DNA of 20,000 nt. Source: an uncultured virus (IMG/VR IMGVR_UViG_3300035187_003505) (taxonomy: Duplodnaviria; Heunggongvirae; Uroviricota; Caudoviricetes). The translations under genes were made by a program, and so were the position numbers. The number at the start of each line of letters is the position of its first letter. Position 1 is the first letter of the stretch. Below, piece by piece: positions 4,223 through 20,000 of this stretch. Where the stretch lies: IMG/VR virus record IMGVR_UViG_3300035187_003505; one strand, written 5' to 3'. The notes beneath the pieces are model-generated. The model was not told where the DNA came from, searched no databases, and saw only the letters and a program-made list of their open reading frames with translations.

Positions 4223-4618
4223 ATGCCCGTGATCGAAATAGCCGTGGCCACCATTGGCGGAATTTTCCTGTTACTGGGTAAACGTGTAGATAATCACATG
4301 AAACGTAGAGAAAAAATAGCGGACGCAGATAGTAAAGCAAAAGCTATTGAACGCAGAGAAGAACAGACCTTTAGACGAACCATCGAGGTAAAACACACAA
4401 GGCTATTTGAAGCATTTATTGAAGAACAGAGAAAAGCTGCTGCGGCTTTTGAGGGCATTCATAGCAGTGTCTCGCGTATAGGTGACGAGATTAAAGAAAT
4501 GAAAGATGAAAATAGAGACTATAGGAACAATATATTTAGTAGAATAGAAGATTTAGAGAAAAAAACTTCTTTGCACGATGGGTTACTAGCTAAAGGTTCC
4601 TACAAGAGTGATCAATAA
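4223..4618 (+). CDS. Single N-terminal TM plus coiled-coil protein (holin-like/lysis-associated candidate)
   Basis: Hydrophobic N-terminus VIEIAVATIGGIFLLLG followed by a charged heptad-like region. Last gene of the tail cluster. Confidence 0.5.
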   Translation: MPVIEIAVATIGGIFLLLGKRVDNHMKRREKIADADSKAKAIERREEQTFRRTIEVKHTRLFEAFIEEQRKAAAAFEGIHSSVSRIGDEIKEMKDENRDYRNNIFSRIEDLEKKTSLHDGLLAKGSYKSDQ

Positions 4619-6277: not shown

Positions 6278-8241
6278 TATTTGGCATCCGCCCATGTGCT
6301 TCCGACTCCAACCTCAGCCAAGATTGGGACACGCTTACAAACGACAGCTCCGGCAGCCTCCATGGTGGATTTCAGCCTGTGCCGCCACTCATCGACCAGT
6401 TCATCCCTCACCTCCATAATCAATTCGTCATGGACTTGACTGAGTAAGCGAGCGTCTAAGTCAGAGGTTATTGCTAAAGTCTCCCAAAGCATAGCCATAG
6501 AGATCTTGCAGATGTCGCCAGCAGTGCCTTGAACAGGAGTATTCACTCTAGTTGTGTATTTGTCGTTAAAACCTATAAGAACACGCCTGCGGCCATACCT
6601 AGTAAATACGGCTTTTGAAGTACCTTGACCTTGCTCTTGCTGCCACTCATACAATCTGGGATAAGCTCTACGGAAACCAGTCACAATCTCTTCACATTCC
6701 GTCATAGCATATAAGATGCCATATTGTGCTAACGCTTGGCGCTGGAAAGTCTTAGCTCCAGCTCCATACAACAACCCAAAATTAGCAATTTTAGCTGAAG
6801 TCCTCATCTCTTTAGTGACATCCTCTAAAGCCACCTGTGCTATTAGAGAAGCAGTCTCAGTATGTAAATCTCTACCATCGGCATACGCCTGTAACATGCG
6901 TTCGTCACCACTAAGCTCCGCTGCTACCCGCAGTTCTATCTGACTAAAATCTGCGCATATCAGTTGATACCCAGGTTCTGCGATAAACAGCGCACGGAAC
7001 GTTTTTTCTTTAGGCACTTGCTGTAAGTTAGGCTCACTAGCACTTAACCTCCCAGTATTAGTACCCATCTGCAAATATCTGCAATGTATTCGATCCCCAT
7101 GAATTTTGGCAGCTTTTAGCAAAGTCTCTACACAAGAAACACGAGTATTAGCCGTGCTCCATGTCATGTATTGATCAATCAGCGGATACTCACTACGAAG
7201 GAAAGCTAAAAGAGTCTGATCTAGAGATACTTTTCCAGGCACCGAAGGTTTACCCACTACCGGTTTAGGCGGAGGCAAAATAATCCCAGCATCTGTAAAT
7301 GCTCTAGCCATCTGTTGAGTGCTTCCAGGATTAAACCCAGCAAGCATTTTATTTGCACCTCTACCAACATTAGTTTTGCGCAAGTTCAAAGATCCGTCAG
7401 GATCCCTAGGTAGCCATTTGGACTCGTCCTCGGGGTGCCGCTGTTTTAGTTCCTCATCCAAAGCGGTCAAAAAAGTAGCTTTTAGTTCATCGGCTTTTAC
7501 TTCAAGATCTGCTTTAAGTCTTGACGCTTGGGCCTTATCAAACTTAAACCCATACCATTGCATATACGCTATGGGCCGTAAAGCCTGCATTTCTAGCGTA
7601 AACACGTCAAACAGAGATGTAGATGACGAATTTAGAATTTTGCTTTCTTGTAGTTTGCTGGTTAGAGGTTCTACTAACAGTGGCAGAGCCCTAGCATCTT
7701 TAGCTGCATAACTCAACATCTCTGTTGTAATACCACCACCCCAGTCAGCTTTCTGTAACTCTTTAGGCATGTGTACTTTTAAGTAGCGAGCTACTATAGA
7801 ACCTAAGTCGTTTTTATGGTCAGTACCGTTAGTAATTATTTTAGACGCTATCATAGTATCAAATATAGGACTCTTGATCAACACAGACTCTGCCCTTAAA
7901 AAATTCAAATCAAACGCGGCGTTCTGTAAAACCTTAGGTTGCCCCGCTTCTAACAGCACCTTCAGCTCTCTAAGTCCCGGCCTTCCCCAAGGGACTGCCC
8001 TAATTAAATTCCCATCAGGGTCTCTGGAACGCCAACCATCAAGATCTACAATAATACAATCTCCAGGGGAACCTAATTGAATAAGTCTAACTCGATCTTT
8101 AAATGGGTTCAATCCGGTGGTTTCTGTATCCACCCCTACCGCCCCGTTGTAAAGGGAAAAATCCCATAGACAGTCAGCTAACTGTTTACCTTGACTTGGT
8201 GAATTGAAAAAAGAGTGACTGTCAGAAAGTCTGCTAATCAT
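6277..8241 (-). CDS. polA: DNA polymerase family A with 3'-5' exonuclease domain (no 5'-3' exonuclease)
   Basis: Exo motifs DTETTG, QNAAFD, YAAKD; TGRLSASEPNLQQVP; motif A ADFSQIELR; motif B RTSAKIANFGLLYG; motif C QVHDE. Confidence 0.95.
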   Translation of the reverse strand: MISRLSDSHSFFNSPSQGKQLADCLWDFSLYNGAVGVDTETTGLNPFKDRVRLIQLGSPGDCIIVDLDGWRSRDPDGNLIRAVPWGRPGLRELKVLLEAGQPKVLQNAAFDLNFLRAESVLIKSPIFDTMIASKIITNGTDHKNDLGSIVARYLKVHMPKELQKADWGGGITTEMLSYAAKDARALPLLVEPLTSKLQESKILNSSSTSLFDVFTLEMQALRPIAYMQWYGFKFDKAQASRLKADLEVKADELKATFLTALDEELKQRHPEDESKWLPRDPDGSLNLRKTNVGRGANKMLAGFNPGSTQQMARAFTDAGIILPPPKPVVGKPSVPGKVSLDQTLLAFLRSEYPLIDQYMTWSTANTRVSCVETLLKAAKIHGDRIHCRYLQMGTNTGRLSASEPNLQQVPKEKTFRALFIAEPGYQLICADFSQIELRVAAELSGDERMLQAYADGRDLHTETASLIAQVALEDVTKEMRTSAKIANFGLLYGAGAKTFQRQALAQYGILYAMTECEEIVTGFRRAYPRLYEWQQEQGQGTSKAVFTRYGRRRVLIGFNDKYTTRVNTPVQGTAGDICKISMAMLWETLAITSDLDARLLSQVHDELIMEVRDELVDEWRHRLKSTMEAAGAVVCKRVPILAEVGVGSTWADAK

Positions 8242-10177: not shown

Positions 10178-12937
10178 CTAAGGCTCCGAACCAGTCACCT
10201 GACCACCAAACGCATCCAACCAATCAGATAGGCCCTCGCGGGGGTGGGCCGAAGGAGGTGGTTGCAAAGTCCCTGACAGGGGCAAATCGCCCTCGGGGGC
10301 AGGGTTTGATTTTGCAACCACCTCCTCTATTTCGCCTTCTGCAGCCCCTCCGGTTGCAAAATCAGGGCTTCCTTCCAGGTCACCCTCTTCGGCCTCGGGG
10401 GGAAGCTCTGATTTTGCAACCACACCCCCCTTTAACCCCCTTGGTTGCAAAATAGTTGCAAATTTCAAAAACCCCTCACACCAAGTGTTTTGGTCATCTA
10501 CATCGAATTTCGCACCCCCCTCTTTCGATCTCTCCCCGCGAGGCACTCTGAAGAGGAGAGTGGGCCTCCCTCTCCCCTCCACCGCGACCATCCCAACCTT
10601 CTCCACCATCCCAGCCTTCTCCCAGGCCGCCAGGTGCTTCCCGATGGCCTGGCGGGACGGGAACACCTCCTGGCCGGCCCCCTCCATCCGGTGGAGCACA
10701 AATTCCCGGATGGCCTTGGGAGTGGCCCCCTCTTCCCCCGAGTCCGTCACAGCGGCCAGCACAAGGCTCCTGGGGCTGATGTCTCCGCTCCGCATCACCC
10801 CCTCCCGCTCAAGTAGGGGAGTGAGATCCTCAATGCTGTAATTAAGTTCTACATCTCTTTTTATCAGCATTCGATCCCCACTACGATCAAAGCGAGACTT
10901 ACCGATACATAAGAATCTGGAGTTAACACCAAAAGTAACTTCTTGTTCAACAGATAAATTCTGTAACTCCCATGTCTCATCGACCGCATTGTTAATACGG
11001 TCTGTTCCTCTAAACTTCGTCCCATCTTTGGTGTTATGGTGAATCCATAACAGAGAACAAGCGGGGAACCCAAACTCAGAACTCATATCACCGTTATTAA
11101 CAGACAAGGCGTACAAAGGAGCTGCGTACTCAGCTTCATTCTCTTTAACCCCCGTTTCATCTTGCGATGAAGCGAGAGAGTCAATGACAACAATGACCGG
11201 CTCTACCTTTCTGATAATATCCGCTAATTCACGCGGAAGGTCAGTTTTCCAGTTTTCTACAAAGTGGAACCAGTCTGAATTAGCCTCTGTAATGTCTTGG
11301 GCGCTTAGCTGAGCATCTAGCCGAGACTTATTCTGGTCACTAGAGATCCACAAAACATTACCCTGCCGACACTGTACGTCGATCCCTCTAATCTTAATAC
11401 ACGCTCCAGTACCAATAGCTTTGGCTAGAGCTATAGCAGTTTCAGTCTTCCCAACACCGCCCCGAGCATGTAGAAGTATCTGTGACGGGCGCCGGATCAA
11501 ACCCGGTATAATGTGTTCTTCTGGCGCAACGTCCTTTCTCCAGTCTTTATCCCGTAACAAACCTATCTCTGCATTCTTAGTAAATTGCTTATGCCGAGTA
11601 ACCAACTCCTTTAATTTTGTAGGAGTTAAGCGCATACGCCCTGTGTTCTCCGCTAAATCGGTTAAAGCAATAAACTGCTCTGAAGGATCCCTAACCTCTT
11701 TAATGATTTTCTCAGCCCTAACCAATAGTTCTATCCCTGATATAACTTCTCTAGGTACATCAGTAGTCTTCTGCACTACCAGCAAATCTTCTGGGTATCT
11801 GTATCCAAGTGCCTCTGCAATAGGTTTTATGTATCGCTCCAATTCAGAACCAACAGGACGCGGTGCGTACATATCATTAGTCTCTATCTTATGGATAAAG
11901 TCCAAAGGATCTCCATATACCTTACAGCTCTTACAATCCCAACAGCCGTTCTCTTCATTAACTTGAAACGACGTGCCACTACTGCTGTCGTGCCAAGGAC
12001 AACCATTCATCAACTGCGGTTTACTACCTCCTCTTGTCTCCCAACCATACTGGTCAAATACTGAATGTCTAAACACTAATTCAGTCAACCTAGGCTGTAA
12101 CTTTTTCTGAACTTCCTCCTTAAAGAACCAACCTCTTAATTGCCTCGGAGGTACTTGAGTGCGACCTACTTCCGATTGCAGTTCACGAATATCGTCTTCA
12201 GCTAACCATTCACTAGGCTTAACCCGCCCTTTCAGTATTTCTAACACCCATGTAGGAGCATCCTCTGGCACACCATTATTGTATTGCAGAAACCTAAATC
12301 GCCTCTTAGTATCGGGATGAGGGCTACCGGGCAACACTGACATGCACTTATTGAATCTCAGCACCAACTCTTCTTTAGGAGCACGATTCATAGTGTCGTC
12401 TTCATTAGGACGACCTTTACCGCTCCACCACACGCCATCATCCAGTAGGATCAATGATATAACATGATTCAGTTGGGAAATCATTGCCTCTGGCACTCTC
12501 CACAGCAACTGCCTACGGCCTGGTTTACCTGATGTCCACGCCATAGTGGTTTCACCCCCGAATGGCTGGTACTCCTCCCCCGAGACCGCTTTGTACCTAG
12601 CATCCGCTTCGTGCCCATCAATATCTAAAGCAATCAATCCGCCGGATAGCGCACCAGTTACTACACCAATACCTCGGTATCGAGAGTCCGACACCAATGC
12701 GGACAACATGTCCTTATGTTCTATTTTCTTACTAGCCCAACCTCTATGGAACGTATCTTTCCCCGCAACTGGGATCAACGCCCAATCATCAGGAAATACT
12801 TTTTTATCAAACATCTCACGGGCAGTACCTTTAGGTGTGCCAGATACAGCTTTCGGCGCTGAAGCACCGATTGGATCAACCGTCATGGTGTAAAATCGTG
12901 AGTGGGCTAGTTCCCAGTGGTCATCATCAAGGCTCAC
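10178..12937 (-). CDS. Multidomain primase-helicase: Prim-Pol (AEP) + Zn finger + AAA_25/RepA-like helicase + winged helix + low-complexity tail
   Basis: GIGVVTG..SGGLIALDIDG and SVLPGSPHPDT (Prim-Pol); CPWH...CWDCKSC (Zn); HARGGVGKT Walker A, VVIDS Walker B, IHHNTK; C-terminal wHTH-like SRQAIGKHLAAWEKAGMV...GRGRP. Alternative start ATG at 12886. Confidence 0.9.
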   Translation of the reverse strand: MSLDDDHWELAHSRFYTMTVDPIGASAPKAVSGTPKGTAREMFDKKVFPDDWALIPVAGKDTFHRGWASKKIEHKDMLSALVSDSRYRGIGVVTGALSGGLIALDIDGHEADARYKAVSGEEYQPFGGETTMAWTSGKPGRRQLLWRVPEAMISQLNHVISLILLDDGVWWSGKGRPNEDDTMNRAPKEELVLRFNKCMSVLPGSPHPDTKRRFRFLQYNNGVPEDAPTWVLEILKGRVKPSEWLAEDDIRELQSEVGRTQVPPRQLRGWFFKEEVQKKLQPRLTELVFRHSVFDQYGWETRGGSKPQLMNGCPWHDSSSGTSFQVNEENGCWDCKSCKVYGDPLDFIHKIETNDMYAPRPVGSELERYIKPIAEALGYRYPEDLLVVQKTTDVPREVISGIELLVRAEKIIKEVRDPSEQFIALTDLAENTGRMRLTPTKLKELVTRHKQFTKNAEIGLLRDKDWRKDVAPEEHIIPGLIRRPSQILLHARGGVGKTETAIALAKAIGTGACIKIRGIDVQCRQGNVLWISSDQNKSRLDAQLSAQDITEANSDWFHFVENWKTDLPRELADIIRKVEPVIVVIDSLASSQDETGVKENEAEYAAPLYALSVNNGDMSSEFGFPACSLLWIHHNTKDGTKFRGTDRINNAVDETWELQNLSVEQEVTFGVNSRFLCIGKSRFDRSGDRMLIKRDVELNYSIEDLTPLLEREGVMRSGDISPRSLVLAAVTDSGEEGATPKAIREFVLHRMEGAGQEVFPSRQAIGKHLAAWEKAGMVEKVGMVAVEGRGRPTLLFRVPRGERSKEGGAKFDVDDQNTWCEGFLKFATILQPRGLKGGVVAKSELPPEAEEGDLEGSPDFATGGAAEGEIEEVVAKSNPAPEGDLPLSGTLQPPPSAHPREGLSDWLDAFGGQVTGSEP
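10260..10516. repeat. Iteron-like GGTTGCAAAATC repeats in alternating orientation (candidate replication origin)
   Basis: Copies at 10260 (+), 10308-10319 (-), 10352 (+), 10408-10421 (-), 10443 (+), 10454 (+, degenerate) and 10505-10516 (-, degenerate). Confidence 0.75.
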
Positions 12938-13068
12938 TCCGGGAAGGGTGGGCCTTTTTACTGGCGCTGGGCCGCCGCCCCCAGTTTACGGCATACCTGC
13001 CTGACCTAGGCATTTTGTGGACATCCGCCTCCCACGTCCCGGCCTCCACCCCTGCGATAGGTTGACCT

Positions 13069-13302
13069 ATGTCCCTCCATGCCTTACCATTGAGCGAATC
13101 GACAGAGCCTGCAGGCGGACCCGCCAAAACCAACTACCGGCGATACGGCGTCCCCAAAAGGAAACGCCATCTGTATCTGACGGACGCGGCGCATGGTCAC
13201 CTAGCATCCCTGGCTAGTCTCCGTAATTCCTCCCCCTCGGAGGTGGCGGAGCAGATCATCCGGGCCCACCAGCAGGCTGTCTCGATCCCCACCGCCCCTT
13301 AA
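13069..13302 (+). CDS. Small RHH/CopG-like DNA-binding protein
   Basis: KRKRHLYLTDAAHGHLASLA....SPSEVAEQIIR fits an RHH pattern. First gene of the divergent rightward operon. Confidence 0.6.
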   Translation: MSLHALPLSESTEPAGGPAKTNYRRYGVPKRKRHLYLTDAAHGHLASLASLRNSSPSEVAEQIIRAHQQAVSIPTAP

Positions 13303-13349: not shown

Positions 13350-14066
13350 ATGCCCGCTACCAAAGCCGCTGCTACGACTAAAGCCAAGCGCCCAACTTCT
13401 GCCTTTCTCACGGATGAACAGATCGAAGAAGTAGCTAAAGATACTCAAGGGAACGATAGTTTTGTCGGCTTGTCCAAGTTAGATGAAGGTAAACCTCATC
13501 GTTTTCGTTATCTCGGTCCAGCAGTTACTGGCTATAGTACCTGGCTCGATGTTGACGGTAAATCACGCCCTATTCGTTGGGCACGGAAACCAGTGGGTGA
13601 GGACATCCCAAGTAATATTCAGATTAACAAGGATTCTGGCAGACCTACGGAGATCAAAAGATTTATAGCTGGTTTCGTCTGGGATTACTTTAAGGAGCGT
13701 ATCCGCGTACTAAACATTGACCAGTCTACTATCCTCAGCCAGCTTCATGCTTTCATCGCTGATGAGGAAGACTACGGAGATCCGCAAGGATACGACATTA
13801 AGATCACACGGAAGGTGGAGAAAGGCTTCACCAAATACTCTCTAACCGCTTCGCCGCCCAAGGATGTATCCGCAGAAATTGACGCGGCATTTAAAGCCCT
13901 TATGAAAGGTGGTGCAGATCTAACCGTTCTATTTGAGAACGGCGACCCCTTTAACCCCGAAGCGTCTAAAGAAGAGGACGCGGGCGATGAAAAGGAGACC
14001 GCAGAAGAAGAAGAAGAAGAAGAAGAAGAAGAAGAAGAAGAAGAAGAAGAAGAAGAAGATCTCTGA
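13350..14066 (+). CDS. Single-stranded DNA-binding protein (phage OB-fold type) with acidic tail
   Basis: FRYLGPAVTGY..W...RPIRW...FIAGFVWDY..ERIRVLNIDQSTI...DYGDPQGYDIKITR...TKYSL resembles a phage SSB-like family. Extremely acidic C-terminus. Confidence 0.7.
   Translation: MPATKAAATTKAKRPTSAFLTDEQIEEVAKDTQGNDSFVGLSKLDEGKPHRFRYLGPAVTGYSTWLDVDGKSRPIRWARKPVGEDIPSNIQINKDSGRPTEIKRFIAGFVWDYFKERIRVLNIDQSTILSQLHAFIADEEDYGDPQGYDIKITRKVEKGFTKYSLTASPPKDVSAEIDAAFKALMKGGADLTVLFENGDPFNPEASKEEDAGDEKETAEEEEEEEEEEEEEEEEEEDL
14004..14057 (+). repeat. (GAA)18 perfect trinucleotide repeat encoding poly-Glu
   Basis: 18 uninterrupted GAA codons read directly from the sequence. Confidence 0.95.
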
Positions 14067-14399: not shown

Positions 14400-15085
14400 G
14401 CTTCCTAACACTCCCTAAACACACACTGGAACGCGAGGATAACCATCCACTAGGGGGACGCCACTATAATACAGAGCTTGGGTGGGCCGGAAGTGTTACA
14501 AATAAAATAGGACAGTCTAAAGACATGACTGGTATCAATGAATGGAGGGAATGGAAAGGTAAAGAAAAAGCTGATGGGATTCTAAAAGTAGCCGGATTTA
14601 GGGGAACAGGCACACACAATAACGTAGAGCAGTTTCTATTAACAGGCGGGGAACCTAAGTTCTGCATGCTACGGACTCCGTACTGGAACAGCATTAAAGA
14701 GTTCTTAGTCAAGATTGAGCATACTGCTCTAATGGAAGGCGCAGTCTGGCACCCTGATGGGTTTGCTGGATCTTTAGATCATCTAGGTTACATAATAGAA
14801 GATCGAGGAGAGATAAGCTTAAGTGACTGGAAGTCAGCCGAGAAATACATTGATGAAAGCAAAGTAGCAGGGCAGCAGAAACTCTACGATTACAAACTAC
14901 AAGTAGCCGCGTACAAAGCTGCAGCGGAGTATGTTTATAGGGATTACGGACTATACATCCCCCGAGCCCGCATCGTCCTAGCCATCCCCGACGCTGCTCC
15001 CCAGGTCTTTAAGCTAGAGGCGGACGAGCTTAAACAACTCTTTATTCACTTCCAAGCCCGCAACCGTTACGCAAACTCAAAGTAA
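14396..15085 (+). CDS. PD-(D/E)XK exonuclease (phage exonuclease family)
   Basis: SVT....SK....INEWR, RGTGTH, E......GFAGSLD, DWKS and YKLQVAAY motifs. Confidence 0.85.
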   Translation: MSFLTLPKHTLEREDNHPLGGRHYNTELGWAGSVTNKIGQSKDMTGINEWREWKGKEKADGILKVAGFRGTGTHNNVEQFLLTGGEPKFCMLRTPYWNSIKEFLVKIEHTALMEGAVWHPDGFAGSLDHLGYIIEDRGEISLSDWKSAEKYIDESKVAGQQKLYDYKLQVAAYKAAAEYVYRDYGLYIPRARIVLAIPDAAPQVFKLEADELKQLFIHFQARNRYANSK

Positions 15086-15705
15086 TGACAATGCCTACTC
15101 TTTCCCCTGTGAACACCGAATACAGGAAGCCTAAGTTGCTGATCATCGGTCACGCTCGTCATGGCAAAGACACCCTTGCTGAGAAAATAAGAGACAAAAT
15201 GGGCCTCGCGTTTATGTCCTCTTCAGTTTTTGTCGGACAGGAATGTATTTGGCATCAATGGGGCCGAAGACGTGTTTGGCATAAATGGTTCCGAAGACGC
15301 TACTCTAATTTTGATGACATGTTTGCGGATAGAGTTAATAATCGCGAAACATGGGCAAACTTGATCTCTGCCTATAATACTCCCGACAAAACACGAACGG
15401 CAAAAACTATGCTTGATCGTGGTTTTGATATGTATGTAGGTATGCGACGGTTAGACGAATTGGTGGCCTGTAGGAACGCTAGGTTATTTGATCATGTTAT
15501 CTGGGTTGATGCTATTAAGCGCCTGCCACCAGAAAGTAAAAGCTCCATGGAGCTAACTCCAAGTTGCGCAGATCTTAAATGCGACAATAACGGGCCAGAG
15601 GCGGACATGGACATATGGGTAAATAACCTACAAAGGTTTTTGCACAACTGCCGCTACGATGTTAAACTCACAGACTCTTCTGCAGTTCTAAAATATGACC
15701 GTTAG
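15085..15705 (+). CDS. P-loop kinase, deoxynucleoside monophosphate kinase-like
   Basis: LLIIGHARHGKDT P-loop; YVGMR..DE; VIWVDA..RLPPE..SSM; DNNG motifs. Confidence 0.8.
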   Translation: MTMPTLSPVNTEYRKPKLLIIGHARHGKDTLAEKIRDKMGLAFMSSSVFVGQECIWHQWGRRRVWHKWFRRRYSNFDDMFADRVNNRETWANLISAYNTPDKTRTAKTMLDRGFDMYVGMRRLDELVACRNARLFDHVIWVDAIKRLPPESKSSMELTPSCADLKCDNNGPEADMDIWVNNLQRFLHNCRYDVKLTDSSAVLKYDR

Positions 15706-15994
15706 TATCTGGCAACCAGACCCTGCCGGCTTCTTACGGGGACATCGTGTCCGATTTGCCGGCGGGCCGGTGATGACGGTCATGGATTACGAGAAAAATG
15801 GATATGAAGATGGAAGCTCGGCTATTACCTGCGGATGGTGGGTAGCTGAAGAGCTTAGAGTCGCAGATTTCCATCCTGGTGTTTTAATACACGCGCAGAT
15901 TGACACAATATGCTCAGAACCTGAGGATACCTCTGGGGAAGTGGTCGTATATCATGAGTTCTATTCTGAACCCGATCAACTAGAGCAACCATAA
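15695..15994 (+). CDS. YodC/DUF2158-like small protein
   Basis: G.RVRFAGGPVMTV....ITCGWW......DFHPGVL matches the YodC (GGP.MTV...C.W) pattern. Confidence 0.65.
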   Translation: MTVSIWQPDPAGFLRGHRVRFAGGPVMTVMDYEKNGYEDGSSAITCGWWVAEELRVADFHPGVLIHAQIDTICSEPEDTSGEVVVYHEFYSEPDQLEQP

Positions 15995-16890
15995 TGGCTA
16001 GTAACTCTGAACTTCAAGGCTATATGCAAGATGTGGGTAGACACATAGTCTTAAGTGAAGAAGCTCAAATACGCCATTGCCGTAATATCGCACTATGGCA
16101 GGCGGCTAAAGCCGATAACAGTGATTTACCAGAATCATATATATCAAAAATAAAGCGGCGCGGGCAGCATTCTATGAAGATAATGGTCGAATCGAACTTG
16201 CGCATGGTGATCACCATTGCAAAAATATATCGGGGCCGAGGATTGGAATTTCCAGATCTTATACAAGAAGGCAACATGGGCTTAATAAGAGGGTTAGAAA
16301 AATACGACCCATCTAGAGGTTACAGACTATCGACTTACTGCTATAACTGGATTAAACAATCTATCACGCGAGCACTCCACAATCAAGGGCGTGCCGTGCG
16401 CGTACCGCTAAACTACCACGAAATACTGTGTAAAGTGCAGCGCGAAAGCATGCGAGTAGAAGCAACTACTGGAGTAAAACCTTCTATTGAATACTTAGCA
16501 CTGTTCGCAAAGGTAACAGTAGAGAGACTTAAACTAATCATGGAGGATTACTCAATCACCACAGTTAGAAGCCTCTCTTGCCCAGCAGTAGAAGGTGGCA
16601 GCGAACTCATCGAGTTACTGGTGGCGGACACTCCCCCCGAGGACGACCCCTCTCCCTCCCCTTTCCCCCAGCTAGCCCTCCCCTCCAGCGAGCATCGCCA
16701 GGTCATGGCCGCGCTGCGAAGCTTACCTTCCAGAGAACACTATGTGATAGAACAGGTGGTGATCCATGGTAAGTCTTTGCAGGAAGTTGCAGATGATATA
16801 TACTTAAGTAAGTCTAGGATCGCACAGTTACTCAAGTCGGGAAAGTCTAAACTGCTCGCTAAGATGAATGAATTATCGGAGAAAGAGTAA
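15994..16890 (+). CDS. Phage-encoded RNA polymerase sigma-70 factor (RpoD/group 2-like)
   Basis: Region 1.2 YMQDVGRH.VLSEE; region 2 NLRMVITIAK.Y..RGLEFPDLIQEGNMGLIRGLEKYDPSRGYRLSTY..WIKQSITRAL; region 4 HTH SLQEVADDIYLSKSRIAQL. Confidence 0.95.
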   Translation: MASNSELQGYMQDVGRHIVLSEEAQIRHCRNIALWQAAKADNSDLPESYISKIKRRGQHSMKIMVESNLRMVITIAKIYRGRGLEFPDLIQEGNMGLIRGLEKYDPSRGYRLSTYCYNWIKQSITRALHNQGRAVRVPLNYHEILCKVQRESMRVEATTGVKPSIEYLALFAKVTVERLKLIMEDYSITTVRSLSCPAVEGGSELIELLVADTPPEDDPSPSPFPQLALPSSEHRQVMAALRSLPSREHYVIEQVVIHGKSLQEVADDIYLSKSRIAQLLKSGKSKLLAKMNELSEKE

Positions 16891-16992
16891 CTTCTTACAC
16901 AATACATATATATATACATTTTTATATAGCATGTATGTGTGATATAGCATACATGTCAATCTCACTCTTAGACTCAGTGAGACTCCAAGGGG

Positions 16993-17021
16993 TTGACACT
17001 GGGGCCGATTGGTGCTAGACT
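16993..17021 (+). promoter_or_regulatory. Early promoter P1 (sigma-70 type)
   Basis: TTGACA-17 nt-TAGACT with extended TGn. Confidence 0.75.
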
Positions 17022-17092
17022 GACGATGGTTCCCGCGCACGCGCGCGTTTCATCTTACTGCGCCGATGTTGCGGGACCTTAGGCGGGACCGC

Positions 17093-17122
17093 TTGACAAC
17101 CTGCCGACCTAGGGGTTATGTT
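17093..17122 (+). promoter_or_regulatory. Early promoter P2 (sigma-70 type)
   Basis: TTGACA-18 nt-TATGTT. Confidence 0.65.
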
Positions 17123-17206
17123 GGATCCAAGCAAGGAGAACCGGCACCCGTCGCGGTCCGTTCTTTCTTTCTTGCTAGTGATCCCCTTGGGGGTCGCGCC
17201 GGGGGG

Positions 17207-17235
17207 TTGACAGACCGCCCAAAACCGACTAAGTT
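17207..17235 (+). promoter_or_regulatory. Early promoter P3 (sigma-70 type), directly upstream of the large structured RNA
   Basis: TTGACA-17 nt-TAAGTT. Predicted start site near 17241-17243. Confidence 0.7.
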
Positions 17236-17240
17236 AATTC

Positions 17241-17745
17241 CACAACCGCCAGAGACCCTATGTAATTCCCCTTCCATAACGCAGACAGTGAAGCGTGTCT
17301 CGCCTGTGAATACAGGAGTTATAGCTGTGAGCTACGGACCTTTGATGGGCTGTAGTGGCGCACATTCAAATCCCGGCGGCTAGGTATCGACCTAAGCAAG
17401 CGCGGCGAACGGGCCAATAATCCCTACCGACTTTCATGTCGGCTAACAGGGGTGAGGTTTCAAGTAGCACCGGAGTACCGGAGGGGGCAGTAGTGTGCGT
17501 TAGATGGGGAGGCCGGTGAGAGCCAGATCCCATCGTGAGCAAGCAGGATCCTCGTGCAGAGAGATCGGGCTCACAGTGCAAGCAGGTTATGCGGTATGTT
17601 ACCGGGGGTTGTCAGGCCCTACACATACTTCTCAGGGGGGTTGGGCCTCCTGCTGCTTAGATAAGGGGTGCTCTTACAGGGCCCCAATCCCGCAAGGGTT
17701 CCCTACCGTCAGGGTTATGCGACGGCTGTAAGCAGGTCTCTTTTA
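17241..17745 (+). ncRNA. Candidate large (~490-500 nt) highly structured non-coding RNA
   Basis: Closing stem AGAGACC (17251-57)/GGTCTCT (17735-41) encloses more than 12 nested helices, e.g. GCGCACATT/AGTGTGCGT, GATGGG/CCCATC, GTGAGC/GCTCAC, AGCAGG/CCTGCT, AGGCCC/GGGCCT, CTTACAG/CTGTAAG and CCC-GCAA-GGG. No convincing ORF; promoter immediately upstream. Confidence 0.65.
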
Positions 17746-17781
17746 TGTAGTCCTGGGCCAATTAACATAAAACAACTTTTC

Positions 17782-17880
17782 TACAACATACCTAGTGCAA
17801 GCTAGGCAAGGCGCGATTCGCCCATCCTGTTCTCGCAGGATGGGCCTTTCGTATGGGGGTTCAAATCCCCCTATGTTGTA
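17782..17880 (+). ncRNA. tRNA-like element (T-arm plus acceptor-like stem, no canonical anticodon arm)
   Basis: TACAACATA/TATGTTGTA 9-bp stem; GGGGG-TTCAAAT-CCCCC T-arm directly adjoining the 3' strand; GCAA-capped hairpin; 10-bp GCCCATCCTG/CAGGATGGGC arm. Confidence 0.65.
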
Positions 17881-17912
17881 TCGCTCCTACGGGAGCACCA
17901 TCTTAGGATACC

Positions 17913-18059
17913 ATGTTGTTCTTTCGTCCAGCACCAAAGATCCGCGTTTTCCCTCTTCCAGACGCTACCACTGCGCCTGGCCGCCGTGCGGCTAAATTAG
18001 CCGCTAAACAGCAGCGTAAGCTGAAAGCTGCTGGTACTTTCGTCCGTATTGAAAAATGA
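17913..18059 (+). CDS. Small basic hypothetical protein (48 aa; not in ORF track)
   Basis: MLFFRPAPKIRVFPLPDATTAPGRRAAKLAAKQQRKLKAAGTFVRIEK; AGGA upstream; ATGA overlap with the next ORF. Confidence 0.6.
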   Translation: MLFFRPAPKIRVFPLPDATTAPGRRAAKLAAKQQRKLKAAGTFVRIEK

Positions 18060-18229
18060 GTAAAGTTTATTTAATCCTTAAAACTAAGGTAATACTTGAC
18101 CTTAGTTGCTCACTGGATGTTCTTAAGGAGGTTGTAGAAGATATGGATTACAGTATTACACCTGATGTTGAGTATGCCACTCTTGTAGATAGTGAAATAC
18201 TAGATTTTGAAGTCACAGATATTAAGTAA
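18056..18229 (+). CDS. Small acidic hypothetical protein (57 aa; not in ORF track)
   Basis: MSKVYLILKTKVILDLSCSLDVLKEVVEDMDYSITPDVEYATLVDSEILDFEVTDIK; coupled to the upstream ORF by ATGA. Confidence 0.65.
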   Translation: MSKVYLILKTKVILDLSCSLDVLKEVVEDMDYSITPDVEYATLVDSEILDFEVTDIK

Positions 18230-18272
18230 TCGTTAGGCTTTCTACTCCAATCCCTATTTCCACAACCACCCC

Positions 18273-18500
18273 ATGGCCTTTACTCAGGAACAAATTTTAA
18301 CTGCTGTCGAGAATGCTGTAACCGGGCAATTTACGTCAGACTGGAATGTTGAAGGGGGATGGTCACATGAGAGTAGTACCGTAGTTCTCTCACAACCTCG
18401 CGACTATTTGTTCTTTACTACTGACGGATGGCGCACCGATAAAGAGAGAATAAAGGTGATAAAGAATATGCGAGGCATGGCAATTGTTTGCTTGATTTAA
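18273..18500 (+). CDS. Hypothetical early protein (75 aa)
   Basis: ATG preceded by a C/A-rich leader (TTCCACAACCACCC); same strand as its neighbours. Confidence 0.65.
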   Translation: MAFTQEQILTAVENAVTGQFTSDWNVEGGWSHESSTVVLSQPRDYLFFTTDGWRTDKERIKVIKNMRGMAIVCLI

Positions 18501-18507
18501 TCACATC

Positions 18508-18568
18508 ATCCCCTCCTCAAGAGTTTCCCCTAAGCGCACTGCGTCTAGGGGTACTTTTGATGAGGGAT
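18508..18568 (+). other. Long imperfect intergenic hairpin (candidate RNase III processing site)
   Basis: About 25 bp of interrupted stem, ATCCCCTCCTCAAGAGTTTCCCCTAAGCGC-act-GCGTCTAGGGGTACTTTTGATGAGGGAT; no U-tract directly after the stem. Confidence 0.55.
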
Positions 18569-18613
18569 TGTCCCTCTTTCCTCTACCCCGGCTCTTTAGC
18601 CGTCTGACTTCCT

Positions 18614-18925
18614 ATGTCAGTTACAACCGTTATCCATCCGGCTAAGGCCGCGATGGATCTTTGGCGTACAACTACGCTGCGCCCAATTCTTGATGTTGTT
18701 CTAACCGAGCGACGCCGGGACACTAACGGTAATACTGTTTTCATAGCTCGCACGGGGCTCGCTATTTATCGAGAACAGCGCGACTACACTCTCACTGAGT
18801 GTGAGAACCATGTAGCAGTGGCTCTAGAGGCCCTGAAGGAGTACTCCGTTAAAACTATGCACAAGTTGGCGGATATACGAATAACTGATGGCCATGGTGT
18901 CATTGTCTTTGAGAGGCTACCATGA
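18614..18925 (+). CDS. Hypothetical early protein (103 aa)
   Basis: ORF in a chain of ATGA-coupled small genes. Confidence 0.65.
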   Translation: MSVTTVIHPAKAAMDLWRTTTLRPILDVVLTERRRDTNGNTVFIARTGLAIYREQRDYTLTECENHVAVALEALKEYSVKTMHKLADIRITDGHGVIVFERLP

Positions 18926-19128
18926 TCGCAGAACACGCGACAGCAGAAGACTTCGCCAAATGGCGGCGCCATGCAGAAACTCTCGATCTTGGTGCTTTGC
19001 GCCATGTTGTCAGAGATTGCCGTCAGGCAGAATCTGCCATGCGTGGCTGGAACCCCACCAGAGAGGGGTACTATGCCGATCAGGCGTTCACTTATGGCGA
19101 TGAATATCGCCGGAGGCTTTCAAGATGA
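18922..19128 (+). CDS. Hypothetical early protein (68 aa)
   Basis: ATGA coupling on both sides. The DCRQA..AM..WNP.REGYY.DQ..TY.DE.RRR motif resembles small cyanophage proteins as recalled. Confidence 0.7.
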   Translation: MIAEHATAEDFAKWRRHAETLDLGALRHVVRDCRQAESAMRGWNPTREGYYADQAFTYGDEYRRRLSR

Positions 19129-19406
19129 CTAAGCCTACTAAACCTGTCACACTTCACTTCACATCTGACCCCAGCCATGGCTGGCTCCATGTCAATCGTG
19201 ACGTGGCAAAGATGATCATGGGCGATGACTACAGCCGCATATCGCAATGCTCTTATCAGCGAGGGGCGACTATCTATCTAGAAGAGGATAGTGATGCAAA
19301 GCTGTTTAAAAAAGCTTGTGAGGCAAGAGGTGTAGACCTTGATATAAAAGTCACATACTACGAACGTACTGCCCCAATCTGTTCCTACGCCACTTTCTAC
19401 CCATGA
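19125..19406 (+). CDS. Conserved phage hypothetical protein (DPxHGWLxV...YLEEDxDA family)
   Basis: FTSDPSHGWLHV...ISQCSYQRG..IYLEEDSDAKLF is a motif set seen in many phage early proteins. ATGA coupled. Confidence 0.75.
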   Translation: MTKPTKPVTLHFTSDPSHGWLHVNRDVAKMIMGDDYSRISQCSYQRGATIYLEEDSDAKLFKKACEARGVDLDIKVTYYERTAPICSYATFYP

Positions 19407-19816
19407 CGGCCATTCTCCAAGTAGTACCGACCCCCCACCTTTGGGAGGTCCATCATCCCTACTACTGCGAACTATCTAATTACTACGCCACCGGCAGGGA
19501 CAAAGGTTATCGAGAGTATGGCAGCTTTGCCGACTTCCTAACCGAAGAAGGCGATGCTGACATGGATTACAACCTTGTATTCCGATGGGATTGGAAAGAA
19601 GGCGATCCAGACGATAATGACGGTGAAATGCCCTTGCCCTACACAGGTGACGACAACTACCGCAACGGCAAGCTCTACCTTTTCATTATGCAGCAACGTA
19701 AAGGGCTGTACGAATGGATTGAAGTCGAAGTCTGTAGGGCCGATGAACCTGCTGTTCTTGCTTACCTTGCTCCTAGGTGGGACCACATGAAAAAACTATG
19801 GAGTCCTGTTCTATGA
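19403..19816 (+). CDS. Conserved phage hypothetical protein (HPYYC...DxDYNLVFRWDW family)
   Basis: 137 aa with HLWEVHHPYYC and DMDYNLVFRWDW motifs. ATGA coupled. Confidence 0.75.
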   Translation: MTAILQVVPTPHLWEVHHPYYCELSNYYATGRDKGYREYGSFADFLTEEGDADMDYNLVFRWDWKEGDPDDNDGEMPLPYTGDDNYRNGKLYLFIMQQRKGLYEWIEVEVCRADEPAVLAYLAPRWDHMKKLWSPVL

Positions 19817-20000
19817 AAAACCTGCTGGGTCACCTGTTGGAGCTGGAATCTTCAGAACTAGAAGACTTCAGTGGTAAAACATTCAATGATTTCCCACCAT
19901 CTATCACTGAAACTGTCATTGAGGAATACCGAGACTTCCGTGAGAAAGCTGATCAAATCCTCCTAGATCTAGGTCTAGGAGACAACTCCCTAGAGGATTA
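19813..20000 (+). CDS. Hypothetical acidic protein, 3'-truncated by the window edge
   Basis: ATG at 19813 overlaps the previous stop (ATGA). The frame is open to the window end (MKNLLGHLLELESSELEDFSGK...). Confidence 0.6.
   Translation, partial: MKNLLGHLLELESSELEDFSGKTFNDFPPSITETVIEEYRDFREKADQILLDLGLGDNSLED

Follow-up and report, generated by a model that had tools for sequence, protein, structure and literature searches.

The window analysed here, a stretch of 20,000 nt assigned to an uncultured virus of the Caudoviricetes (IMG/VR IMGVR_UViG_3300035187_003505), encodes PolA, a helicase, a primase, an AbrB-like regulator and a sigma-70 factor, as identified by Pfam matches. The isolates matched by the sigma gene include Synechococcus phages S-CBS3, S-CBS1 and KBS-S-2A, and a 68-aa gene at 18922 matches S-SRM01 and S-2L. 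From these matches and from the boxA match of relatives described below, the host is presumably a picocyanobacterium, an assignment from which two short contigs carrying the 68-aa marker in MAG bins with non-cyanobacterial labels were left out. Among cultured phages there is no match to the window's cassette or to that of the related loci L016 and L089. The AbrB-like regulator (PF14250; 5475–5939, minus strand) is a cyanobacterial-type transcription factor carried by a phage, and the SSB-like protein (13929–14066) has a long acidic terminal run of glutamates encoded by a GAA repeat. The related contigs L011, L012, L018, L024, L027, L035 and L049 start 1.2–1.6 kb upstream of the exonuclease gene, equivalent to about 12900–13200 of the window near the divergent primase/SSB junction, and this shared start is possibly a genome terminus, an origin or a repeat. 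Long GCT-type triplet repeats lie downstream of the small genes in L001 (about 12500–12800) and L003 (about 11880–12180), where they cause Rfam matches to isrG that were rejected as spurious.

Between the stop codon of the sigma gene (16890) and the start of a 48-aa ORF (17913), the ORFs of at least 40 aa measure 105, 75, 45 and 41 aa on the plus strand and 71, 53 and 55 aa on the minus strand. The 105-aa ORF has no PHROG match, is only 47 aa long in L001 and was not found in L002 or L011, and the 75-aa ORF is intact in just two relatives, L001 and L002, which share the window's core without a difference. Positions 16891–17912 are thus without a conserved ORF, in agreement with the original prediction of about 1 kb lacking credible protein genes, and the cassette that it placed there exists, with host-type promoters, a hairpin RNA of about 50 nt, a structured RNA of about 490 nt and a tRNA-like element (Table 1). 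The 48-aa ORF shows four synonymous changes to one non-synonymous change against L003 and is probably a real but accessory gene, unlinked to the RNA; its product has no family match and no usable ESM Atlas match. It had been proposed as a partner of the RNA, a role that does not fit its absence from L001 and L002, which have an identical RNA core, and its presence in L003, which has an unrelated RNA.

Table 1. Features of the RNA cassette and its neighbours in the window.
Feature	Position	Strand	Evidence or remark
Phage sigma-70-family gene	15994–16890	+	Pfam Sigma70_r2/r4; constant upstream neighbour of the cassette, also in relatives
AT-rich motif, then inverted GAGACTC-type motifs	16896–16988	.	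Conserved in the family
Promoter P1, extended -10	16993–17021	+	Strict pattern; equivalents in L011, L013 and others
Short GC hairpin and U run directly after P1; terminator-like, weak	17034–17056	+	Similar motif in relatives
Promoter P2	17093–17122	+	Strict pattern; RNA contig X1 starts at 17137
Small hairpin RNA (about 50 nt), conserved CGUCG loop	17130–17177	+	Folding z
Promoter P3, predicted start near 17242	17207–17235	+	Strict pattern; RNA contigs start at 17254 and 17262
Start-stop mini-ORF (Met-stop), first ATG after P3	17260–17265	+	Recurrence in relatives
Two short interlocked leader helices	17279–17299	+	Each with one two-sided change against L001
Large structured RNA body, class A	17313–17741	+	Conservation, covariation, RNA contigs; P3 transcript about 490–500 nt
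Conserved core arm, class A: GAA/AGUA motif (loop-E-like), second internal loop, apical hairpin	17400–17470	+	
3' pseudoknot: loop 17673–17679 pairs with 17726–17732	17665–17732	+	
tRNA-like element	17784–17879	+	Acceptor covariation; U discriminator, no encoded CCA
Trailer hairpin ("microhelix"); ACCA at 17897–17900	17883–17896	+	Hairpin fold conserved, covaries
48-aa basic ORF	17913–18059	+	In the window and one other contig only
Long bulged hairpin, putatively RNase III-site-like	18510–18568	+	z -6.0; in most relatives directly behind the large RNA

Relatives were collected by a search with the sigma protein, which gave three close phages, and by alignments of the exonuclease and the 68-aa protein, which gave 34, 17 and 79 loci. 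The 79 loci anchored on the 68-aa protein represent 55 distinct ones, and loci without a sigma gene in range were left unclassified. From the loci spanning the whole slot a set of 36 was picked by hand; as these loci are related to each other, the counts given below are not counts of independent events. Throughout this phage family the sigma gene is followed by the promoters, the small hairpin RNA, a large structured RNA and a 3' module together, as the original prediction required of a genuine cassette, although the fixed set of RNAs that it envisaged gave way to a large RNA and a 3' module that are interchangeable between relatives. The AT-rich stretch directly behind the sigma gene has equivalents in L068, L094, L126 and L137, in each of which between one and six inverted motifs of the GAGACTC type come after an AT-rich motif. 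It is perhaps a DNA signal, for which a phage-sigma promoter, a terminus, a packaging signal, an injection stop or a protein binding site can be guessed.

The three predicted promoters were borne out by a strict pattern (TTGACR-N16-18-TAnnnT), which has four matches on both strands of the 20 kb, three of them in the cassette (at 16993, 17093 and 17207); none of 300 shuffles of the region reached three or more matches, the maximum being one. A looser promoter scanner finds the first two sites, misses the third and performs at chance over the window (28 sites against 28.8). Judging from the consensus, P1–P3 are probably transcribed by the host RNA polymerase, hence early. The structures predicted along the cassette fared unequally, with strong support for the tRNA-like element, modest support for the P2 hairpin and none from folding energy for the P1 hairpin (z +0.8). 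The stem of the small P2 RNA differs in sequence in L011, L013 and L116 with its fold retained, and its folding z is -2.2 in the window (17127–17200), -3.0 in L013, -1.3 in L011 and +0.4 in L116. The loop of this RNA (17145–17154) could pair with the final hairpin of the large RNA (17719–17728), also in L011 by eye; this complementarity was not used as evidence, as it appears by eye to be absent from classes B and C.

The large RNA is more conserved than the protein genes. Not one of 445 positions (17301–17745) is substituted in L001 or L002, compared with 1–3.5% in three protein genes, and L011 retains 88% DNA identity over 548 nt though its sigma protein is only 52% identical. Folding energy is weak for the 666-nt block as a whole (z -1.7), and the support for the large RNA comes from covariation and from RNA contigs, both of which uphold the earlier claim that it exists. 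In the comparison with the distant relative L083 (L083 and L011 being one contig), pairing survives 14 of the 15 stem substitutions, and the 109 modelled pairs comprise 99 unchanged, four with one-sided changes, five with two-sided changes and one broken, in a nested structure partly derived by folding the two sequences on which it was counted. The 3' pseudoknot was identified from the window alone and keeps all seven pairs in L083, with two two-sided changes. In L089, a more distant relative, 27 of 53 pairs are the same, eight have one-sided and five two-sided changes, and 13 are broken, partly by shifts of the alignment. In the 71-nt core arm, compared among 13 class A sequences, 12 of 16 pairs have two-sided changes, and paired cells make up 70.6%, whereas shuffles reach 59.5% and sliding the structure gives no more than 52.9%; relatedness inflates such controls. 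A model of this arm, searched in 66 sources, gave 17 strong matches and one at E 0.99, all in class A and none in B, C or D loci. Covariation thus shows that the RNA of about 490 nt folds into a multi-junction, pseudoknotted structure. Rfam has no match in the window or in relatives of classes A, B, C and D, even at E 10. RNase P RNA, the HDV and pistol ribozymes and group II introns were each considered and rejected, as their motifs presumably come in another order and they gave no Rfam match.

Five freshwater metatranscriptome runs from two studies contain 35–39% of the words of 16900–18100; the runs were selected using this stretch and are represented by assembled contigs, which give only hints of ends, strand and level. 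When the 5.5 kb from 14500 to 20000 were compared with four runs, all four had contigs only within 17137–17812 (17137–17812; 17254–17735; 17159–17415 with 17388–17726; 17262–17736; with variants of the L001 type). The starts of these contigs fit P2 and P3. Their 3' ends differ by study (17726–17736 versus 17812), those of three runs lying 48–58 nt before the predicted cut at 17783/17784 and that of one 28 nt past it, although assembled contigs cannot show true ends. No contig of the four runs covers the flanking genes of 14500–20000 or spans the tRNA mimic, an absence that does not amount to silence, but the bare flanks argue against carry-over of DNA. It is weakly shown that the large RNA accumulates above the flanking mRNAs. 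The large RNA is thus a real, expressed and uncatalogued RNA within a modular phage cassette.

Clustering of the bodies in the 36 loci gave four classes, with 14 (A, that of the window), 13 (B), 5 (C) and 2 (D) members, and two singletons. No fewer than four RNA bodies of about 500 bases (450–700 nt) that cannot be aligned with one another occupy the slot in different phages. In L003, whose sigma protein is 97% identical, 17296–17780 are replaced between the same flanks by an unalignable sequence of about 585 nt. Different bodies are carried by six pairs of phages with sigma proteins 96–100% identical (in two of these pairs both bodies are class A subtypes), and one body is shared by phages whose sigma proteins are only 40–51% identical. 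The body of L003 was considered as a distant homologue of the window's and rejected, as the A-versus-B alignment scores 110.8 against 106.7 ± 9.7 for shuffles and the class A core model matches no B, C or D locus. Further class B bodies are found in L094, L126, L137, L162 and L024, beside that of L003 (7301–7884); class D is found in L112 and L143, and L087 has another uncatalogued body. The clean replacement in L003 and the elaborate fold could suggest selfish mobile or catalytic RNAs, such as intron-like ribozymes, lodged in a safe site. This reading is very unlikely, as no group I or II intron is matched in Rfam, the RNA contigs include no joint or spliced form, none of the 36 loci has an empty slot and no reverse transcriptase or endonuclease gene is adjacent.

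Each large RNA begins with one of two kinds of start module in most loci. The first ATG after P3 opens a Met-stop or Met-X-stop reading frame in 25 of the 36 loci, compared with nine of 152 background ATGs; the second codon is any of eight different codons or is missing, and the stops are TAA (18), TGA (5) and TAG (2). A boxA-like site occurs in six loci, none of which has the mini-ORF, and is absent from the window. Five of the six sites match 15–19 of the 20 positions of the picocyanobacterial rRNA boxA published in PMC9769826, and the call in L082 was made with a shorter pattern only. By the first-ATG test five loci have neither module, although one of them, L132, has a mini-ORF at its second ATG. 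Class C RNAs adjoin or sit between boxA-like sites, as in L055 (9600–9830), L019 (6420–6640), L017/L086, L013/L081, L103, L109, L111 and L129, and that of L055 is closed by a long stem which by eye resembles the processing stalk of pre-rRNA. The class C boxA may be the phage's copy of a host signal for rRNA transcription; the function of boxA is described in PMC10931766. In the precursor made from P3, which would begin with the mini-ORF, a ribosome at that site probably protects the 5' end or links translation with folding, and in class C relatives the host rRNA boxA signal would take the place of the mini-ORF. The minigenes of the lambda bar loci likewise consist of a start codon, at most one sense codon and a stop; unlike them, the mini-ORF here heads a structured RNA and its second codon is freely variable or absent.

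The start modules also bear on whether the RNA is a cis-acting leader that governs the small early genes through elongation, stability or translation, with the contigs as its stable by-product. Models for such a leader are the nut/N leader of lambda, put of HK022 and the left end of T7. In every case small genes on the same strand follow the RNA, and boxA-like sites matching up to 19 of 20 positions in class C, the mini-ORF and RNase III-like hairpins are all of a kind with leaders. However, unrelated bodies of 450–700 nt interchange before similar genes, identical bodies precede different genes and a processing module separates body from genes, which makes control in cis unlikely.

This putative processing module takes two forms. 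The tRNA-like element of the window consists of a 7-bp acceptor stem, a hairpin in the position of the D arm, a long arm at the anticodon position, which ends in a variable loop of 4–6 nt and has no anticodon loop, and a T arm; together with its trailer it has a folding z of -8.3. In six distinct sequences all 42 cells of the acceptor stem are paired, with two-sided changes at six of the seven positions, and the two helices that follow also show two-sided changes. A further two-sided T-stem change is found in L156 and L162, the acceptor of L156 pairing at only five of seven positions. In 11 of 12 rows a fully paired acceptor is stacked on a T arm of 5 bp that carries a UUCRA loop, two rows having inserts in the T stem; these inserts are structured and measure 23 nt in L083 (about 4582–4604) and 53 nt in L094 (about 4523–4575). 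The first three acceptor pairs, which are identity bases, vary among members, so that there is no constant set of identities for aminoacylation, and this variability is more in keeping with a signal read by its shape than with a charged tRNA. With ARAGORN, no tRNA or tmRNA was detected in the window or in any of 51 loci. Compared with a tRNA, the element lacks the 7-nt anticodon loop, replaced by a long hairpin, and the canonical D arm, which is also replaced; compared with tmRNA, it lacks an Ala-type acceptor, a CCA end and a tag reading frame. A pattern for the mimic has 13 matches in viral contigs and none in 185,579 prokaryote genomes. Pattern matches in L007, L061 and L076 were dropped as chance hits in a real tRNA region or coding DNA. 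The original prediction had also listed a microhelix; the trailer hairpin covaries, but ACCA follows it in only five of 12 rows (four near-identical strains and L162), and its reading as a CCA-ended RNA is not supported.

The mimic occurs in eight of the 36 loci, behind bodies of both class A and class B, and an RNase III-like hairpin is the end module in 27 of the other 28 loci, never together with the mimic. This mutual exclusivity is the main argument for a role in processing. In 17 loci the RNase III-like hairpin is preceded by a small pseudoknot, which likewise never accompanies the mimic. An H-type pseudoknot of about 65 nt with an inserted hairpin ends many bodies (L024, 7283–7350; L016, about 6765–6830; and 15 other loci), has no Rfam match and is a candidate exonuclease block or small ribozyme. 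RNase P requires less than the full set of arms of the mimic, and the retention of three extra arms, the very strong conservation of the stacked acceptor and T arm and a stretch behind the first hairpin that does not vary could mean that the effector is the mimic, which after excision and CCA addition would serve as a decoy for defence toxins or nucleases that target tRNAs. That it is found in so few of the loci and is replaced elsewhere by modules unlike tRNA, that it has neither an anticodon loop nor a fixed identity set, and that no RNA contig spans it render this role improbable. The host RNase P probably cuts at the mimic (17783/17784), as RNase P does at mascRNA behind MALAT1, although the missing CCA and the T-stem inserts of two members could hinder such cutting. 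The cut would free the 3' end of the large RNA and leave the trailer hairpin heading the mRNA of the small genes, and in relatives without the mimic the RNase III-like hairpin would serve at the same place.

On balance, the slot is probably a payload site for a large, stable, processed and trans-acting phage RNA. As unrelated bodies are swapped among near-identical phages, the RNA most likely acts in conflict, a role for which this pattern of swapping is the basis; it might be a decoy or binder of host translation or defence proteins, or be directed against competing phages. More tentatively, the locus may be an "RNA moron", in which ornate RNAs are swapped as counter-defence or host-takeover effectors within a fixed chassis for expression and processing; such a chassis, a possibility of the same tentative standing, would be formed by host promoters, a loading signal for ribosomes or Nus factors and a release signal for RNase P or RNase III. 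If so, the locus would be the RNA equivalent of variable anti-defence protein cassettes, with four or more new classes of large RNA. Large structured RNAs of bacteria and phages are rare, and here one family of lake cyanophages supplies several uncatalogued classes, which are new targets for cryo-EM and ribozyme screens. The family also offers natural swap experiments, in phages that are near-identical apart from the body and in bodies joined to different end modules, so that the function can be tested by comparing them and by expressing the RNA in a laboratory cyanobacterium.

The arrangement shares parts with several known systems. The left end of T7 and the nut/boxA leaders of lambda have host-polymerase promoters, RNase III hairpins and boxA before small early genes, and the cassette resembles them in its three tandem host-polymerase promoters, RNase III-like hairpins and boxA; unlike it, those leaders hold neither a conserved pseudoknotted RNA of about 500 nt nor a tRNA mimic. 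The tRNA-like domain of tmRNA has an acceptor and a T arm with a long helix in place of the anticodon loop, as has the mimic, which differs in having no fixed Ala identity, no CCA and no tag frame, in being closed by a hairpin and in being negative by ARAGORN and Rfam. The mascRNA of MALAT1, as outlined in PMC8457004, is a tRNA-like fold behind a longer RNA that acts as a signal for RNase P, and RNase P also cuts phage RNAs that are not tRNAs, such as M3 RNA and C4 antisense RNA, according to PMC11143913. The mimic resembles all three as a tRNA-like fold behind a longer RNA and a putative RNase P signal. Unlike mascRNA, it stands in a bacterial and phage context, has an extra hairpin and a long arm, and can be replaced by an RNase III-like hairpin, an interchange that would make it a bacterial parallel of MALAT1 processing.

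The nearest likeness is to the large ornate RNAs GOLLD, of about 800 nt, and ROOL, averaging 581 nt, as portrayed in bioRxiv 10.1101/2024.12.08.627333, PMC5737381 and PMC9241854: abundant phage RNAs of unknown function that are large, multi-junction and pseudoknotted and often lie next to tRNAs. The cassette differs from them in having no Rfam match, several unrelated bodies per slot, a tRNA mimic rather than a true tRNA neighbour, and a start formed by a mini-ORF or boxA. Its RNA might nevertheless be of their kind, a protein-free RNA that assembles itself into a multimer or cage, which would be compatible with a payload site. The similar size, phage origin, pseudoknots, apparent abundance and tRNA-like neighbour favour this, and the interlocked leader helices, which have no linker, might pair between molecules; against it, Rfam is silent even at the loosest threshold used, the bodies are exchangeable and shorter than GOLLD, and no kissing loop was shown to covary between copies. 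Such an assembly is rather unlikely, and so to the same degree is the corollary that the tRNA mimic substitutes for the tRNA genes neighbouring those RNAs. No description of such a cyanophage RNA was found in the literature, although the supplementary alignments of PMC10690425, which reports 10,006 viral candidate RNAs, and of PMC5737381 may hold short pieces of it. Within the portions of that literature covered, the cassette RNA is a kind of large ornate phage RNA with an architecture not found described, and although the Rfam model and the tRNA neighbourhood exclude it from membership, it may work most like GOLLD and ROOL.
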